This document shows positions 1 to 59,880 of a DNA stretch of 64,000 nucleotides, one piece after another. The position numbers and the translations under genes are program-made. The notes below the pieces were generated by a model, which ran no database searches, was not told the DNA's origin, and saw only the letters and a program-made list of their open reading frames with translations. Source of the DNA: Enterobacteria phage RB18. How positions within the stretch are numbered: the stretch's first letter is position 1; the number at the start of each line of letters is the position of its first letter. The stretch is from sequence record NC_054906.1; one strand, given 5' to 3'.

Positions 1-2178
1 TTAGGCCGCAAGGGCCTTCATAGTTTTAGCGATTTGGGAAACTTCATCATCACTTAAAGAACTGCGATATCCGATGAAGTCGGAAACAATACGGAATTTC
101 TTGGTAAACTCAGCAACCATTTTATCACTGTTTTTTGAAGCATTATTTGATAATACATCAAAAAGATTAGTTACTGTCCAGATGTCATGACCGATGGTAT
201 CTTTTCCACCATTAAAATATACACCGCGCAATGAACTAACTATATTAGCGAGTCGTGTATATTCTTCAGAAACTTCATCTGTACTGAAGTACTTCATCAT
301 AAAATCTAGTTCAGGATACTTGATAATTTTATCAATATATCGTTGAGCTGAACTTGAATAACCTACATACTTATCATAATCTACATCATCAAAAGCATCT
401 ACATATAAATCACGCAGAGTTTCAAAAATACATTGGCACTGACCGAGTTCTTTTACCTTTTTCTGCAAAAGCGGACGAATAACATAAAATTCATTAATGC
501 CAATAAGATTAGCCATACGAATCAAAATATTCATAGATGGATGACAAAGAGATGTAGTACCATCCATAGAGAAAATATCAGAACGATGCATATACGCTAC
601 ATACCCAGTAATTTCATCTGCTTCTGATGTGAGCGTAAATAATTCCTCTTTTTCCCAGCGCCCGTCTTTAATTTCAAACTTAAATGCTGTAGCAGCTTTA
701 GGACGAGGAGCTTTACTTTTAACTACCTTTGGAATATAGCTTTTAACTAAAGCTTCAATTTCTGACAAATAATGAATGTTAACTTCATCACTTTCAAACA
801 TCGCCATAATATCAGGAAGCAAATCAATCTGCGATTCTACTTCTGGATTAATAAACAGAAGGCGTTCGTTGTGATGAATATTCAAAGTGTTATTAAATTC
901 ACTATCATCTAACGCATGTGCTAATCCACGGACAATATTAACACGATTTTTAATATTATCAATAACGATATTAATTTTTGTTGCATTAATACCAAACAGA
1001 CGATAACTTGATGCAACGGCTGAAGTTTCATGACTTTGCTTAATGCGCTTCAGTCGAGGGTCAAGATTTACTTCATACACAACTCCTGCATTGCATAACT
1101 TACTATCAGGTTCAAACATGCTTTGCATCTTCTTATATGACAGATTTTTAGTCGTAAATTTGACTGAATTACTAATCATATAATCTCGAGCAGAATACCC
1201 CATCTTCATCAATTCACGATATGTATGACGGGGAGATGTGGATTCTTTAAATCGTTTTACATCTTCATTAAATGCTTTCTCACTGAGTTCTTTAACTCGT
1301 TCAATAATATTTTTACGAGTACGATCATCCAGTGAAAGAGCCTCGCGAGATGGAGCAATATCAAGTGAACCCATTGGAAACTTAATGTAATTCACTTCAT
1401 TGCGAATGCTTAGCCAGTTACGGTCTCTAATAACACCATCGATAGGATAAACAATACCGCCATAGATAGCATATAATCCACCACGATCTGGCCAGTATCT
1501 TTCTGGATTTACGCCATAATAATCATCAAAATCCGGAAAATAATCAATTTCGCGGTCAAGACCATTAATGATAGCCAAATCTTTGAACGGTCGCATGATA
1601 TAAGAAACTTCATAAGCAAAGTTTCTAAAGTCTTTTTCTTCAACTGGAACTACGATTTCAATACCAGTTTTATCATCTGGACCCATTTCTTTTACGAATG
1701 TAGGTTTAATCTGTGGGCCATCACCATCCATGTAAGCTACATAACCACGAATTTCACCTTTATGATACGAAGTAATACTAAACGTATCAGTATAACTAAA
1801 CGGAGATTTAGAACCTAAACCAAATCCGCCAATGAAATCGTTAGATTCAGCTTTAGATGAACTGAAGTATGAATTATACAGTCCAGGAGAATTATCATCA
1901 CCCTGAATATCAAAATCACTCATACCCGGACCAAAATCTCGACAAACAAATCGTGGATCTAATCGTCCTGGAACTTGAATGATAAATTTTTCAGGATTTC
2001 CATTAAGAGCATGGGCATCAATCATGTTGGTAATCAATTCACGGACCACTGCGCGAATCTTGTTTGTATACAAATCAGATGATAGAATTTTAAATACTTT
2101 AGGATTTGCTGCGATGCTAAATGCTTTTGATTTAGAACCATTGCCAAGAATTGTTTCTTTTTCAGTGGTGATAATCAT
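1..2178 (-). CDS. rIIA: RIIA membrane-associated protein (rapid-lysis / Rex-exclusion locus)
   Basis: 725-aa ORF, same length as T4 RIIA; N-terminus [16 protein letters not shown] as recalled for T4; map position next to gene 39. Confidence 0.85.
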
Positions 2179-2188
2179 AATTTCCTCA

Positions 2189-2392
2189 TTAATTCATATT
2201 ACGTTTAATAACTTCGGCAACTTCTAGTAGTTCATCTTTAGTTGCGGTATCGGATTGAATTTTATCTCTAATATCCTTAAAGCGGTTTTTAAATTCTTCG
2301 GCTTCTCCCATATCGAAAAAGCGTTGAATGATTCTATATTCTCGATGAACTGCTTTATCAAAAAGTTCTAAATTTACTTTATATGATTTCAT
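2189..2392 (-). CDS. small hypothetical protein at the rIIA.1 position
   Basis: 67-aa ORF directly upstream of rIIA, GAGG RBS, preceded by an early promoter. Confidence 0.5.
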
Positions 2393-2417
2393 TTCAATAT
2401 CCTCATTTGCCCAATTA

Positions 2418-2447
2418 ATTATACCACATCCTTGTGGTAAAGTAAAC
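2418..2447 (-). promoter_or_regulatory. early sigma70-type promoter (GTTTAC-18 nt-TATAAT)
   Basis: minus-strand GTTTAC and TATAAT with 18-nt spacer overlapping the stop of gene 39, upstream of rIIA.1. Confidence 0.55.
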
Positions 2448-4267
2448 TACTGGCTCATCCATTCTTTACGAAGGTCAGCATTATCTCCCATGAGCATTTC
2501 AAAAAGCTCTTTCCAGTTCTCAGGAAGTTTAACAACATCATATACTGGGTTTTGAATCATCTCACGATATTCAGATTTTTCCAAAGAGCCAAGTCCCTTA
2601 ATATAACGGATGCTATGTTTAGGTAGAGCATCTTTGGCACTCTCATATTCAGCGACTGTATAAAACCATTCTTGTTTTTTACCGACCTGAGCGATGATTA
2701 CAGGAGTTTTGACAAAGCGAATTCGTCCTTGCTCAAACAATTCTGGCCAATTACTAAAAAATCCGAGCAGAGAAGGATAAATGCTTCCTAGACCATCATG
2801 GTCAGCATCAGTCATAATAGCAATATTATGATAATTCAAGTTTTCAGCTTTTTCACCAAGAACTAATCCAGTGATTGCGCAAATATCAAATAGTTCTTTA
2901 TTTTTAAGCATATCAGCATATGACATACCCCAACTGTTGAGAACTTTACCACGCAATGGATAACCACCATGAAGTTCTTTATCACGAACATCAATAAGAT
3001 ATCCGATAGCAGAATCACCCTCAGTCAAGAAAAGAGTAGTATCAGCATCTTTACCGCAAAGATTCGCTTTGATATGTTTATGAACCTTAGCTTTAGAAGC
3101 CTTTTTAGCTGCTTTAGTTTCTGCTGCTTTTTCTGCCGCCAATTTACGAGCCAAAGCAGCTTCAATAATCGGCATTAGAATTGCTTCATTATTTAGAATA
3201 GCACGTGAAATCTTTTTAGCATCAAGTTGAATATGACTACGGATTTCACCAAATGGAGAAGTCAAACGCTCTTTAGTTTGAGAATCAAATCGCATGTTTT
3301 TCATATCACGAACAAACATAACGATAGTCAAACATTCTTTGACACGCGCTTTGGTTACATCAATTTTGAACTTACGTTTGATTTGTGGAATAAGGTCTTC
3401 ACAAATATCATCCATAACACAGTCAATGTGATGGCCACCATTCTTAGTATGAATGTTATTGACGTATGTTAATTGACGAAAACCATCTGGTGAACGACCA
3501 ACCGCAATAGAACAATTTTCTTGTTCTTGAACGATAGCATGTTCATCATACTGTCGTGCGTATTTCTTAAAATTACCCTGAACCTTTTTACCATTAAAGG
3601 TAAATTGAATATCAGGATAAACAACAGCAAGTGTCTGGAGACGATCCAGTGTAATGTCAAGATAAACTTGGGACAGCTCATTAGTTTCAAATGACATAAA
3701 ATCAGGAATGAAAGTAACACGAGTTCCTTTCCATTTTCCAGGAATATCTTCCCATGATTTATTTTCCATGCCATTTGAGCAACGAACTACAATATTATTT
3801 TGACCATCGCCAGTTTCACCGACAAACATCACAGAAAAAATGTTTGTCAAACTAGAACCAACACCGTTCATACCGCCAGTGACGCGTTCTTTATCATCAC
3901 CGAAGTTACCACCTGCTTTTGGAATAGTCCATGCGGCAACAGGACCAGGAATTTCTTCACCGGTAGGTGTTTTAACCATCGCTTGTGGAATACCGCGACC
4001 GTTATCTTCAACTGTTACTTGATTGTTTTTAATAGTAACATTAATTTTATTTGCGAATTTAAACTTAGTACGAATACCTTCATCTACTGAGTTATCGATA
4101 ATTTCATCAATAAGCTTAACAAGACCAGGTACATACTGAACACTTTCCCATTTACCAAACAGAAAGCGCTCATGCATTTCATTAGCAGAAGAGCCAATAT
4201 ACATGCCGCTACGCTTTTTGATATGTTCAATATCGCTCAGAATTTTAATTTCATTCTTAATCATCAC
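2447..4267 (-). CDS. 39: DNA topoisomerase II large subunit, unsplit T2-type gp39 (GHKL ATPase + TOPRIM)
   Basis: 606-aa ORF; no separate gene 60 between rIIA.1 and 39; conserved position. Confidence 0.9.
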   Translation of the reverse strand: MMIKNEIKILSDIEHIKKRSGMYIGSSANEMHERFLFGKWESVQYVPGLVKLIDEIIDNSVDEGIRTKFKFANKINVTIKNNQVTVEDNGRGIPQAMVKTPTGEEIPGPVAAWTIPKAGGNFGDDKERVTGGMNGVGSSLTNIFSVMFVGETGDGQNNIVVRCSNGMENKSWEDIPGKWKGTRVTFIPDFMSFETNELSQVYLDITLDRLQTLAVVYPDIQFTFNGKKVQGNFKKYARQYDEHAIVQEQENCSIAVGRSPDGFRQLTYVNNIHTKNGGHHIDCVMDDICEDLIPQIKRKFKIDVTKARVKECLTIVMFVRDMKNMRFDSQTKERLTSPFGEIRSHIQLDAKKISRAILNNEAILMPIIEAALARKLAAEKAAETKAAKKASKAKVHKHIKANLCGKDADTTLFLTEGDSAIGYLIDVRDKELHGGYPLRGKVLNSWGMSYADMLKNKELFDICAITGLVLGEKAENLNYHNIAIMTDADHDGLGSIYPSLLGFFSNWPELFEQGRIRFVKTPVIIAQVGKKQEWFYTVAEYESAKDALPKHSIRYIKGLGSLEKSEYREMIQNPVYDVVKLPENWKELFEMLMGDNADLRKEWMSQ

Positions 4268-7248: not shown

Positions 7249-7761
7249 TTAATCTAAGGTAATAAAGCCTTTTAATTCGGCATGCGATTTGCGAAACATT
7301 ACTTGATGCCCACCAATGATAACTTGATCATCTGGCACTTCATAAATCGCAATGTACATTCCACGATCTTTTAAGTCTTCACGCTCTTCTCGAGTAAACC
7401 ATCTCATTATATCATATTCACTAGCGAAAGCAAAATGATATAATGCAATAAACCACAATGGAATATAATTTTCAATTCGTGAATAATCTTTATTCCATTT
7501 AGTTTTAATAGCATCATTAGCATTTTCAACTAATAACTTATCATCGTGTGGAATAGGAATACTTTCATGACTTTCATAATCATTGCTATGATGATGAAAT
7601 GATGATGAATTAATACCGCAAAATTTTAGCCAAGTTCGAGTTTTCATAGAATCAAATCCACGATAAGGAGTTGATTGAACACATAACTCTTGCCTAATTT
7701 TCATTATACCACTATCATCATTTAATGCGCTAAACGATGATTCAACACGATAAATTTTCAT
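7249..7761 (-). CDS. hypothetical protein (170 aa from internal ATG)
   Basis: the track ORF start at 7800 overlaps the promoter; ATG at 7761 has a GAGGA RBS. Confidence 0.5.
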   Translation of the reverse strand: MKIYRVESSFSALNDDSGIMKIRQELCVQSTPYRGFDSMKTRTWLKFCGINSSSFHHHSNDYESHESIPIPHDDKLLVENANDAIKTKWNKDYSRIENYIPLWFIALYHFAFASEYDIMRWFTREEREDLKDRGMYIAIYEVPDDQVIIGGHQVMFRKSHAELKGFITLD

Positions 7762-7788
7762 TTTATTATCCTCAGTAGCTATGGTGTT

Positions 7789-7818
7789 ATAATACCACAA
7801 CTAACCGAGGAAGTAAAC
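7789..7818 (-). promoter_or_regulatory. early promoter (GTTTAC-18-TATTAT)
   Basis: minus-strand consensus between dexA and the next ORF. Confidence 0.5.
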
Positions 7819-7824
7819 AACTTT

Positions 7825-8508
7825 TTATCGTTTAGTTGGAAGAGATAGAGGATCGCATTCTTCCTCTGACGGAGCATCTTCAAGACCCATAGCATATCGC
7901 AAAGCATACTTCATCATCAGGATGTCTTTCGCACAGTCATGAATAGAATCATGTGCAACGAATCCATCTAAAGTTCCCTTTGGAAGAGGACATGTGGTCA
8001 TATCACGAACAAGTAGAAGTGCTTCAATTCTGGTACGAATATCACGCTGATTCCAAAATTTACAAGGTTCTAACTTAAATGTATCAAGCTCATTCTCTGA
8101 AACGCCGTTAAGACGTTGAATATCGCGAATGAGATCGACTAAAATTGGAAAATCAAACGACATTCCACGGCACCAGCCTTGAGATTTCCAAGGATCGATA
8201 TTATGTGCATTGATGTAATCATTAAATTTTGCAATACCATCGATAGTGCTTACATCTTCATCGGATGGTGCAATATTTTTTCGAGCTTCAGGAGACTGAT
8301 TTTTCCACCATTCGATAGTGCTTTTAGTAAAAAGACGATGTCCTTTTTGGCTTTTTAAATCAAATTTGATTTTAATGCCGCGTGAAACTAATTCATCAAA
8401 TGTTTCAACGACTTCTGGATTAGGGTCAAAAGCAATTACAGCCAAATCAATAACAGCTGCTTTTTCACCGCTTCCCATTGTTTCAAAATCTATAATAAAA
8501 TCAAACAT
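7825..8508 (-). CDS. dexA: exonuclease A (DnaQ-like 3'-5' exonuclease)
   Basis: 227 aa, same length as T4 DexA; N-terminal DFETMG-type exonuclease motif. Confidence 0.8.
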   Translation of the reverse strand: MFDFIIDFETMGSGEKAAVIDLAVIAFDPNPEVVETFDELVSRGIKIKFDLKSQKGHRLFTKSTIEWWKNQSPEARKNIAPSDEDVSTIDGIAKFNDYINAHNIDPWKSQGWCRGMSFDFPILVDLIRDIQRLNGVSENELDTFKLEPCKFWNQRDIRTRIEALLLVRDMTTCPLPKGTLDGFVAHDSIHDCAKDILMMKYALRYAMGLEDAPSEEECDPLSLPTKR

Positions 8509-11749: not shown

Positions 11750-12352
11750 TTATAGATTAAATCCTTCAAAATCAAGAGTATAGATAGTGTATGTTGAATA
11801 CTTTTTATACTCATATCTATCTGCAATTCTAAATACACTTCCAGCTGGTATCATTACTTCTTGTTCATCTGAAACTAATTCCATATTACGATAACGATGG
11901 CTATCCGGAAACTTAAAGTTTGGATTGTATTCTTTACAGCGTAGAGCTTTTATAGCATACTCCTGGAAATTGAATACCATAGGAGCTTTGAATTCAAAAA
12001 TAACTTGTGTGTTATACTCTAAACCGGAAGCAAAATGTAGAGCTATATTTTTATCATATGAAGCTGATACGACTTTATCAAATGTAATAATATCAATTCC
12101 TTGATTTAACACCTGCTTAGTCTCAGCTGGAACACCTCTCCAAAGAGGTTTATCGTTTGGAACCAAACGAGATTTGATTATTTCATTTAACCAAGTATGG
12201 TCATCTGGTTTGTTGGTAATACAATGAATTAAAAGTTCAATTTCAGATAAATTAAACCCTTCAGAAAGTAATTCTTCACGAATAGAAGCACGCACCGATG
12301 CATCCATTGATTTTATTTTAAAATCTTTTAGTTGCATTACTGAGTATTTCAT
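11750..12352 (-). CDS. modA: ModA ADP-ribosyltransferase
   Basis: 200 aa, same as T4 ModA; tandem with modB. Confidence 0.75.
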   Translation of the reverse strand: MKYSVMQLKDFKIKSMDASVRASIREELLSEGFNLSEIELLIHCITNKPDDHTWLNEIIKSRLVPNDKPLWRGVPAETKQVLNQGIDIITFDKVVSASYDKNIALHFASGLEYNTQVIFEFKAPMVFNFQEYAIKALRCKEYNPNFKFPDSHRYRNMELVSDEQEVMIPAGSVFRIADRYEYKKYSTYTIYTLDFEGFNL

Positions 12353-12972
12353 TCAACTACCTCAATATCATAAACTTTAAATGTTCCAAATGAATCGTGT
12401 AATTTTTCTTTTGAAATAGAAGTTATTTTATACTTTCCAATTGGAATCATCCATTCTTGTTCATGTACAATCATCATTAAGTTATCAGTACGCTCTGAAT
12501 CTAATCCATCAGTGTCTTCATACGTGTACTTAAACTCAGTATTAGGAGAAGAAAGTATAATATCGCTGATATGGTCAGAGTAATTAAAAGCTTTATCAGT
12601 TTTTAAACGAAGTATTGTTTCAGTGAAATATTCAGCATAAGAAAAAGAACACGCTGTATGCAAACTAGTAGTAAATGAATCTACCCTGTTCGTTGAAAAC
12701 ACTTCTCCAACTTGTAAATCTTTAATAAGTTCTTTTGTCGATTTTGATATACCACGATATAATTGATAAGGCGATTTAGTTAAATGCTTTTTAATGATTT
12801 TATTCAACTGTCTGTGAAGAGCTTCATTCTTTTTGGCTTCCATACATTGCCAAAGAACAGACTGCTCAAAGTCAGTAAATTTTTCACAGACTTTTTTATA
12901 CATATCATATTGAAAATCAACGCTTTCAGCTTTTATAGATAACTGTTCAACATCTGCAGGATTAATAATCAT
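12349..12972 (-). CDS. modB: ModB ADP-ribosyltransferase
   Basis: 207 aa, same as T4 ModB; 4-nt overlap with modA. Confidence 0.75.
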   Translation of the reverse strand: MIINPADVEQLSIKAESVDFQYDMYKKVCEKFTDFEQSVLWQCMEAKKNEALHRQLNKIIKKHLTKSPYQLYRGISKSTKELIKDLQVGEVFSTNRVDSFTTSLHTACSFSYAEYFTETILRLKTDKAFNYSDHISDIILSSPNTEFKYTYEDTDGLDSERTDNLMMIVHEQEWMIPIGKYKITSISKEKLHDSFGTFKVYDIEVVE

Positions 12973-57805: not shown

Positions 57806-58023
57806 GTCACCTTTAAGCAGTATTCTTCTACATGCTGTTTACGACCTTTCTTATCAATAAAGGTATATTCAACGAATGTTCCAATGTAGTCTTTATCTAC
57901 ATCATGTGGACTATTAATTGGACATTTAGTACGGCAAATGCGTTCCCATTGACGAATAATTACTGCCTTATTCTTTGGGTCATACGGATGTGGATAATGT
58001 ATATTCATAATAACGGTTCCCAA
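57796..58023 (-). CDS. hypothetical small protein
   Basis: 75-aa ORF. Confidence 0.45.
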   Translation of the reverse strand: MGTVIMNIHYPHPYDPKNKAVIIRQWERICRTKCPINSPHDVDKDYIGTFVEYTFIDKKGRKQHVEEYCLKVTWL

Positions 58024-58472
58024 TCAACAATCACAATTTCTAATTTAGAGGAATATGTATCTAAAATCCCCTCAATAATATCCCAGTTCCCTTTACCTAT
58101 GCCTGCACCAATCCTAGGCATATAGATTGTAGGTTTAATCAGTTTATTTTCACCAAACTCATTTAATTCTAACATACAATTCATTAAAGCGGAATACTCA
58201 AAATTTGGCCCTGGTTGAAATTGAGTATAAAGGTTGAAGCAATACGCTTTATGAGTCCTAAAGTATTTTTCATAGACTGAGTAAGAACCGAGTTTAGTTA
58301 CATCACCCCATTCAGTCTGTAATTTATCAGCTTCCAAAATTTTAGGGAAAGCTTTGGTTAATTGACCCGCTACGCCTGAACCCATAGTATGAAAACAATT
58401 GCATCCATGCGCAATATTTTTACCTTCAGCGAAAAGGGCGACAATATCGCCCTTGATATATTTTACAATCAT
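58005..58472 (-). CDS. macro domain protein (ADP-ribose binding/processing)
   Basis: 155 aa with macro-domain-like glycine motif GCNCFHTMGSGVAG. Confidence 0.55.
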   Translation of the reverse strand: MIVKYIKGDIVALFAEGKNIAHGCNCFHTMGSGVAGQLTKAFPKILEADKLQTEWGDVTKLGSYSVYEKYFRTHKAYCFNLYTQFQPGPNFEYSALMNCMLELNEFGENKLIKPTIYMPRIGAGIGKGNWDIIEGILDTYSSKLEIVIVDWEPLL

Positions 58473-58816
58473 CTAGTACTCAATCCTCGATTATAAGAAT
58501 CTACCAAACGGTCAACCATTGAATGACAAGCGGCTTTATCTTTCTCCTCCGCAACTGAACATTCTAAGGTATTCCACTTTTTAGCATATCGTTTTAATAA
58601 TGTATCGTTTTTGTATCTACTTGATTTATCTCTTTCTCCGTCTTTATATGCATATATTAATTTCTGTGCAAATTCAGCTTGACATGCTTTATTTTTCCCA
58701 CAATAATCTGCCGCAGTGCGGTTTACATATTCTCTAATTTCAGTATATGATGTATCTGCTGATGCAGAAGCAGAAAATGAAATTAATCCTATACATAAAA
58801 CCAAAATTTTAGTCAT
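58469..58816 (-). CDS. secreted Cys-containing protein
   Basis: 115 aa with signal peptide. Confidence 0.5.
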   Translation of the reverse strand: MTKILVLCIGLISFSASASADTSYTEIREYVNRTAADYCGKNKACQAEFAQKLIYAYKDGERDKSSRYKNDTLLKRYAKKWNTLECSVAEEKDKAACHSMVDRLVDSYNRGLSTR

Positions 58817-59354
58817 TTACTATTTCCAAAAGTTTATTATTTTTAAGGTAATTAGCCTTTTCTAGGACTTCAGAAGCATATTTAGAACCAGCTTTAACAT
58901 TCCATCCCGAATTATAAGAGGATATTGCTTTTCTTATATCGCCCTTATGTATATTTAACCAATAAGAAAGTTCAATGTACGCCCAGGAAGCTGAATTGGA
59001 TCGTTTATTCAACATTCTTTTTATTTCAGCATCGGTCATATTATAACCAAGTTCCTTAACTCTTGCTCGCATAGTAGGCAAATAATTTTGGAACATTCCG
59101 TAGGCGTGATGCTTTGGTTTAGATTTTAAATTAACTCCGCCAGAGCTTTCTTGCCATAAAATAGCAGCCATTATATGACCTAATCCGCTCTTGTGGATAT
59201 TTTTGTGTGTTTTATATTTTCCATCCTTAGAAAATTGTTCCCCGAATTGATACGCGTAACGCATGTTATCGAGTTGGACATTACTGAAAGTATGCTCGGA
59301 GCTATGTGCCATCATTGAAATGGCCAATAGACCAGCGAGTAGTGCTTTTCTCAT
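58809..59354 (-). CDS. secreted lytic-transglycosylase-like protein
   Basis: 181 aa with signal peptide; SLT-type catalytic motif AAILWQESSGG. Confidence 0.55.
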   Translation of the reverse strand: MRKALLAGLLAISMMAHSSEHTFSNVQLDNMRYAYQFGEQFSKDGKYKTHKNIHKSGLGHIMAAILWQESSGGVNLKSKPKHHAYGMFQNYLPTMRARVKELGYNMTDAEIKRMLNKRSNSASWAYIELSYWLNIHKGDIRKAISSYNSGWNVKAGSKYASEVLEKANYLKNNKLLEIVND

Positions 59355-59850: not shown

Positions 59851-59880
59851 ATTATACCACAGTCAAGAGGAAAAGTAAAC
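59851..59880 (-). promoter_or_regulatory. early promoter (GTTTAC-18-TATAAT)
   Basis: minus-strand consensus about 28 nt upstream of the regB ATG. Confidence 0.55.

Follow-up and report, generated by a model that had tools for sequence, protein, structure and literature searches.

DarTG systems stop phages by ADP-ribosylation of DNA, and the erasers encoded by phages decide which phages can grow on DarTG hosts; these erasers bear on host-range prediction and on the choice of phages for therapy. In T-even phages the NADAR factor AdfN (gene 30.3) is an orphan antitoxin-like hydrolase which reverses DNA ADP-ribosylation, as is proposed here for Tk.4; however, its fold is unrelated, it counters DarTG1 by acting on guanine-linked ADP-ribose and it gives no protection from DarTG2. 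Since T4 without AdfN is still resistant to DarTG2, the existence of a second factor was to be expected (PMC11825919). A preprint has reported that, when a T4 transposon library was grown on a DarTG2-expressing host (HIDEN-SEQ), tk.4 was the single significant hit, and that a clean tk.4 knockout makes T4 sensitive to DarTG2; its authors described Tk.4 as structurally similar to Mycobacterium tuberculosis DarG, named the gene adfM (anti-DarT factor Macrodomain) and, as to an enzymatic clearance of ADP-ribose from DNA, went no further than "seems likely" (bioRxiv 10.1101/2025.11.20.689424). The literature searched yielded no biochemical assay of Tk.4. The name AdfM has also been given to gp104 of phage PhiKZ, which removes DarT2-made ADP-ribose from DNA in vitro, with an activity lowered by the N23A substitution, and rescues DarT2 toxicity (Cell Rep 2026, PMC13309987).

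The cellular enzymes closest to these proteins differ in their catalytic residues. DarG (Thermus aquaticus, 5m31/5m3e; M. tuberculosis, 5m3i) has a catalytic Lys80, while human TARG1/OARD1, which removes thymine-linked ADP-ribose from DNA, has a Lys84/Asp125 dyad. Conversely, SCO6735 from Streptomyces coelicolor (5e3b) and BT1257 from Bacteroides (2fg1/2afc) are ALC1-like macrodomains of a Gln type which cleave thymidine-linked ADP-ribose on DNA. Indeed, SCO6735 lacks both Lys and Asp and is still active; the residues that matter for its catalysis are Asn27, Gln85 and Gly128, with Q85A abolishing the activity and N27S nearly so, and the mechanism proposed from mutagenesis and molecular dynamics, with no substrate-bound structure behind it, is that an Asn-locked Gln holds the distal ribose, while a water positioned by the backbone of Val25 begins the reaction (PMC9411070). 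In addition, SCO6735 uses a longer, Lys-bearing mobile loop for DNA binding (PMC9411070). Its activity on thymidine-ADP-ribose oligonucleotides was confirmed by an independent assay (PMC12879935) and extends to uracil-linked ADP-ribose in RNA (PMC13036486). SCO6735 is, however, a cellular, DNA-damage-inducible protein and not a phage counter-defence gene.

The window analysed here is a stretch of 64,000 nucleotides from Enterobacteria phage RB18 (NC_054906.1), which contains a tk.4 gene (Table 1). The encoded protein is identical to T4 "ORF 60.5" (X04567.1; 100% over 155/155 aa), and the corresponding ORF is annotated as tk.4 in RB14, between tk.3 and vs; thus, neither the protein nor its position differs from T4 AdfM. 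Conversely, the carrier is an RB14-like Tequatrovirus and not T4: the 3-kb flank matches Escherichia phage RB14 best (98.6%), with other Tequatrovirus genomes behaving likewise, and two extra small ORFs lie between tk.2 and tk.3. The RB14 gene run, all on one strand, is regB, vs.1, vs, tk.4, tk.3, the two small ORFs, tk.2, tk.1 and tk. The small ORFs are RB32ORF110c and RB32ORF111c in the RB14 annotation; the second one is Cys-rich, with a CxxC and five further Cys, a composition pointing to a small zinc-binding protein. An antisense ORF overlapping the end of tk.4 has no annotated counterpart in RB14.

Table 1. Features of the tk.4 region and of the modA/modB region in the RB18 window
Feature	Position	Strand	Basis
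tk.4 (adfM) CDS, 155 aa; lone macro domain, no additional domain	58005..58472	-	ATG-to-stop ORF
Loop 1 motif, H22-G-C-N25-C-F-H-T-M-G-S-G-V-A-G36	58365..58409	-	translation, alignments
N80-L-Y-T-Q84-F-Q-P-G88, end of central strand and start of next loop	58209..58235	-	translation, alignments
Loop 2, P119-R-I-G-A-G-I-G-K-G-N-W130, Gly-rich diphosphate-binding loop	58083..58118	-	translation, alignments
Putative ribosome-binding site, purine-rich GAGGATTGAG, upstream of tk.4 ATG	58479..58488	-	sequence
ATGA, vs stop / tk.4 start overlap	58469..58472	-	sequence
ATGA, tk.4 stop / tk.3 start overlap	58005..58008	-	sequence
Nearest strong sigma-70-like promoter, upstream of regB	59851..59879	-	TTTACT-17 nt-TATAAT, upstream TG
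vs	58469-58816	-	
vs.1	58809-59354	-	
First small ORF between tk.2 and tk.3, 57 aa	57423-57596	-	
Second small ORF between tk.2 and tk.3, 70 aa	57593-57805	-	
Antisense ORF	57832..58125	+	
modA/modB ORFs	11750..12352 and 12349..12972	-	

The sequence-only reading of this DNA had noted a macro-domain-like glycine motif in the ORF (GCNCFHTMGSGVAG, Tk.4 residues 23-36), and its observation is confirmed by Pfam, by phmmer and by an AlphaFold2 model; its interpretation of Tk.4 as a macrodomain with an anti-defence role is likewise supported. The finding is correct, yet already known, since the domain has been on record since 2006, when tk.4 orthologues were found to match the A1pp (macro) domain (PMC1524935), and the function became known in late 2025. 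The plating on DarTG-positive hosts that had been suggested has also been performed already, as a positive result is published in the preprint for the identical T4 protein (bioRxiv 10.1101/2025.11.20.689424). The novelty left is modest: an active site of the Gln type, two AdfM proteins that are not orthologous, and a "phosphatase" annotation that is probably misleading.

Tk.4 matches the Pfam Macro family (PF01661) with 27.7 bits (gathering cut-off 22 bits; E 2.9e-6) over profile positions 2-113 of 118. Among PDB sequences, phmmer places BT1257 first (E 1.3e-9), followed by Poa1p, SCO6735, DarG and TARG1. The AlphaFold2 model, obtained from an input of 42 homologues (pLDDT 96.0, pTM 0.91), displays an alpha/beta macro fold built around a mixed central sheet, and its top Foldseek match is human TARG1/OARD1 (4j5r/4j5s, E 9e-10). 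The closest structural neighbours are TARG1, DarG, Poa1p, BT1257 and SCO6735, and not macrodomains of the MacroD, PARG or macroH2A types. In the class comparison the figures were 18.2 for BT1257, 17.6 for Poa1p, 17.1 for M. tuberculosis DarG, 16.7 for Thermosipho DarTG and 16.4 for TARG1, while all the remaining macrodomains reached 13.8 or less; on this basis the modelled Tk.4 is placed in the ALC1-like (TARG1-like) macrodomain class. Two Gly-rich loops typical of the fold can be recognized, M30-G-S-G-V-A35 (the G-x-G after strand 2) and P119-R-I-G-A-G124 (the P-x-I-G-x-G of loop 2), and ADP-ribose is probably bound in the cleft that they line.

Although related in fold, Tk.4 is not a DarG. 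This identity was considered and ruled out by model scores far below the cut-off, by the lack of a C-terminal domain and of an adjoining darT, and by the absence of the catalytic Lys. On the NCBIfam DarG model (NF048014, cut-off 250 bits) Tk.4 scores 30.3 bits and matches only positions 2-146 of 338, which correspond to the macro part, and the PADLOC DarG model gives it 36 bits, where a genuine DarG reaches 454 bits. No darT (DUF4433) gene is found next to tk.4, whose neighbours are vs and tk.3. A search of plasmids did not reveal close relatives of Tk.4; it yielded a genuine Meiothermus darTG operon and a Streptomyces SCO6735 homolog, which served as controls and led on to the PDB sequences. 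In the former, a DUF4433/DarT gene is followed by a 346-aa DarG that reaches 465.6 bits on the NCBIfam model and through which the DarG macrodomains of Thermus and M. tuberculosis were retrieved. This darT-darG operon (1848-3541 of the locus from Meiothermus taiwanensis plasmid NZ_CP021131.1) is flanked by a DUF262 gene and a type I restriction S subunit and, on the other side, by an AAA ATPase/DUF4276 pair, surroundings that look like a defence island.

The active site was mapped with a Tk.4-family profile and with a MAFFT alignment, which are in agreement. Both put Q84 of Tk.4 (N80-L-Y-T-Q84) in the column taken by the catalytic Lys in DarG (N76-F-P-T-K80) and TARG1 (L-I-T-K84), and in register with Gln85 of SCO6735 (N-M-I-G-Q85). 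In loop 1, N25 corresponds to DarG N22, TARG1 S35 and SCO6735 N27, while in loop 2 G126 takes the column of TARG1 D125, occupied by Gly in DarG and by Ala in SCO6735. Therefore, neither the Lys of the TARG1/DarG type (K84/K80) nor the TARG1 Asp125 is present in Tk.4, which has Gln84 and Gly126 in those columns; conversely, the signature of SCO6735 and BT1257, a Gln in the column of the catalytic Lys combined with an Asn in loop 1, is found as Q84/N25. G23 and G124 of Tk.4 align with V25 and G128 of SCO6735, respectively. The pairwise phmmer alignment with BT1257 gives a different register at the active site and was set aside because it runs ungapped over the mobile loop, with a consequent register shift; the profile and the MAFFT alignment were preferred for their mutual agreement and since they match the difference in loop length published for SCO6735 (PMC9411070).

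Some differences from SCO6735 and BT1257 are nevertheless evident. The sequences are only about 28% identical, Tk.4 has a T-Q pair where these proteins have G-Q, and the mobile loop following the Gln is 5-7 residues shorter, both in Tk.4 and in 6/6 aligned phage homologs, thus resembling DarG and TARG1 in this respect; in the MAFFT alignment Tk.4 lacks the Lys-bearing segment of SCO6735 (K89, K94). Overall similarity gives no clear placement with SCO6735/BT1257, since the family profile scores BT1257 at 64 bits, TARG1 and SCO6735 at 55 bits each and DarG at 43-54 bits.

Conservation was evaluated on 119 full-length homologs, with identity down to about 35%. In loop 1, G33 and A35 are invariant (119/119), G23 and N25 are found in 118 of the 119 sequences and H22 in 114. 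At the strand end Q84 and Y82 are present in all, N80 in 118/119 and T83 in 116/119, while P119, I121, G122 and G124 of loop 2 never vary (119/119). The conservation of Q84, N25 and G124, together with the same arrangement in SCO6735 and BT1257, suggests that Tk.4 most likely uses a lysine-independent chemistry of the SCO6735 type.

Taken with the published finding that T4 needs tk.4 to grow on a DarTG2 host, these data support, with good confidence, an interpretation of Tk.4 as an enzyme that consists of a free-standing macro domain and serves as an orphan antitoxin to host DarTG2, most likely through the lysine-independent chemistry. During infection, host DarT2 ADP-ribosylates thymidines in single-stranded phage DNA, with a block of replication; Tk.4 would take up the ADP-ribose in the Gly-rich cleft and hydrolyze the N-glycosidic bond between thymine and ribose, restoring clean DNA. 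As proposed for SCO6735, Gln84, held by Asn25, would form a hydrogen bond with the ring oxygen of the distal ribose and position the substrate, and a backbone-held water would start the reaction, in contrast with the chemistry of Lys80 in DarG and Lys84 in TARG1. Thus, protection would be enzymatic, with thymidine-linked ADP-ribose on DNA as the substrate and a Gln-type mechanism. If the substrate breadth of SCO6735 (Glu/Asp-linked ADP-ribose on proteins, uracil-linked ADP-ribose on RNA) were shared, Tk.4 may also neutralize further ADP-ribosylating defences.

Among the alternatives, the one that survives best, improbable as we judge it, is a housekeeping function, in which Tk.4 would clear NAD-derived metabolites during infection as an ADP-ribose-1''-phosphate phosphatase similar to Poa1p or as an O-acetyl-ADP-ribose deacetylase. 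The structural closeness to Poa1p and the inherited domain names ("phosphatase" in RefSeq and PHROGs) point in this direction; however, these labels were inherited from the generic name of the A1pp domain, and a small-molecule enzyme would leave unexplained the DarTG2-specific phenotype, the sole one on record. At the residue level, of H23, S30 and F152, which were probed in the Poa1p structures, the first corresponds to H22 of Tk.4 and the second is replaced by T29 (shared motif H-x-C-N-C-...-G-x-G), while the C-terminal part aligns poorly; judging from the motif by visual inspection, with no formal alignment, Poa1p appears to carry a Ser at the position of Q84, whereas the invariant Gln/Asn pair matches that of a thymidine-ADP-ribose hydrolase. 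A side activity of Tk.4 on small molecules is possible.

Still less probable is a protection without catalysis, through inhibition of DarT2 by binding or through shielding or sequestration of ADP-ribosylated DNA or of NAD-derived ligands. Some macrodomains are indeed readers and not enzymes (PMC9503650), and phages do produce direct DarT inhibitors, AdfA and AdfB, the former being reported to inhibit DarT1 directly, according to the introduction of the PhiKZ study (PMC13309987). However, the 155 residues of Tk.4, which align only with the macro portion of the DarG profile, do not include the C-terminal DarT-binding domain of DarG, and the counterparts of the SCO6735 catalytic residues Asn27, Gln85 and Gly128 are invariant or nearly so in the 119 phage homologs, a pattern that would be predicted by selection on catalysis; together, these two features make non-catalytic inhibition of DarT2 unlikely.

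A last possibility concerns the ADP-ribosyltransferases of the phage itself. The presence of ModA and ModB, which the sequence-only reading had indicated, holds for the window: both ORFs match PHROG 832 ("RNA polymerase ADP-ribosylase") and adjoin srd, as in RB14, and the names were assigned through this match and the RB14 synteny because a Pfam search gave no match for either protein. ModA and ModB modify arginine. That Tk.4 tunes or erases the marks left by Alt, ModA and ModB, either arginine ADP-ribosylation or RNAylation of host proteins, is the least probable of these explanations. The window does encode ModA and ModB, and the fold alone would be compatible, Legionella MavL being an arginine-specific macrodomain (cited in the reference list of PMC13036486); however, the documented substrates of the TARG1/DarG/SCO6735 class are thymine- or uracil-linked and Glu/Asp-linked ADP-ribose (PMC9411070, PMC13036486), tk.4 is separated from modA and modB by about 45 kb and does not share a transcript with them, and the accessible part of the preprint gives only a DarTG2-specific depletion of tk.4 (bioRxiv 10.1101/2025.11.20.689424). 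Hence, of the idea that Tk.4 reverses ADP-ribosylation, the host-defence setting stands, through the DarTG2 phenotype of the identical T4 protein, whereas the framing around ModA and ModB finds no support.

An anti-DarTG2 role of Tk.4 also invites a comparison with PhiKZ gp104, the other stand-alone phage macrodomain that counters DarTG2. The translated gp104 construct contains a DarG-type FPTKDNW motif with the lysine and shares 30% identity with Taq DarG (E 5e-26), while BLASTP against Tk.4 gives only a local match of 23 residues. Thus, gp104 is Lys-type and DarG-like, Tk.4 is Gln-type, and the two are not close homologs, so that the name AdfM hides two different enzymes. Moreover, gp104 is imported into the phage nucleus, a compartment that T4 is not known to have. 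From these comparisons the T4-type and PhiKZ-type AdfM appear to have been recruited separately, each from its own branch of the class. The broader proposal, which joins two independent recruitments to a definition of the Tk.4 family as lysine-independent, SCO6735-like thymine-ADP-ribose glycohydrolases, and not as a captured DarG, is put forward tentatively, at somewhat less than an even chance.

As regards expression, for the putative ribosome-binding site preceding tk.4 the T4 record X04567.1 annotates a ribosome_binding_site feature under the match, and the ATGA overlap with vs suggests translational coupling from vs to tk.4. A search for a strict MotA-box middle promoter directly upstream of tk.4 found none. 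On sequence grounds, the sigma-70-like site upstream of regB may act as an early promoter from which regB, vs.1, vs and tk.4 are transcribed together; sites of this kind are not in excess between 56.4 and 60.3 kb (16, against 16.6 in shuffled sequence). Considering the ATGA overlaps, this promoter and the lack of a MotA box by tk.4, the gene would be expressed within a prereplicative polycistronic transcript. A terminator-like hairpin followed by a T-run at 58434-58454 (+), on the non-coding strand within the 5' end of tk.4, was rejected as a signal and is probably due to chance, since the three structures of this type found are within the expectation from shuffled sequence (2.3). Concerning the upstream neighbors, vs was the most depleted gene in minimal medium according to the HIDEN-SEQ preprint (bioRxiv 10.1101/2025.11.20.689424), while the N-terminus of vs.1 resembles a signal peptide and a match of vs.1 to an SLT transglycosylase domain has been reported (PMC1524935).

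The Tk.4-family profile gives exactly one match in the RB18 window, with 213.5 bits. By tblastn, relatives were found in 2,749 of 50,697 phage records, which include Tevenvirinae, Felixounavirus-like and Vequintavirinae-like phages, as well as phages of Pseudomonas, Acinetobacter, Campylobacter and Bacillus; metagenomic homologs are also numerous. Their annotation is not uniform: some GenBank records use "macro domain protein", while RefSeq and PHROGs use "phosphatase" (e.g. NC_012638.1 58325-58792; phrog_335). The latter label, derived from the old A1pp domain name, is probably misleading for the Tk.4 family, whose only demonstrated role is anti-DarTG2. A full-length Tk.4-like match with 27% identity is also found in Bacillus thuringiensis plasmids (H69-H76, e.g. 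NZ_CP013278.1 145437-145904), within a CDS annotated as "SLOG family protein", which suggests either a macro-SLOG fusion or a mis-annotation.

Phage T5 was used as the DarTG2-sensitive control in published work (bioRxiv 10.1101/2025.11.20.689424; PMC11825919). Among its 473 stop-to-stop ORFs the Tk.4-family profile found no match (best 8.4 bits), and tblastn with DarG, gp104, TARG1 and SCO6735 gave nothing significant; in this one genome, the absence of such a macrodomain is weakly consistent with the anti-DarTG2 role. In the same phage, T5.105 (7588-8094 of the T5 locus) is labelled "Sir2 (NAD-dependent deacetylase)", yet it begins with an N-terminal FLDIDGVLN typical of HAD-type phosphatases, and the label is probably a mis-annotation; the nearby T5.102 is likewise labelled Sir2.
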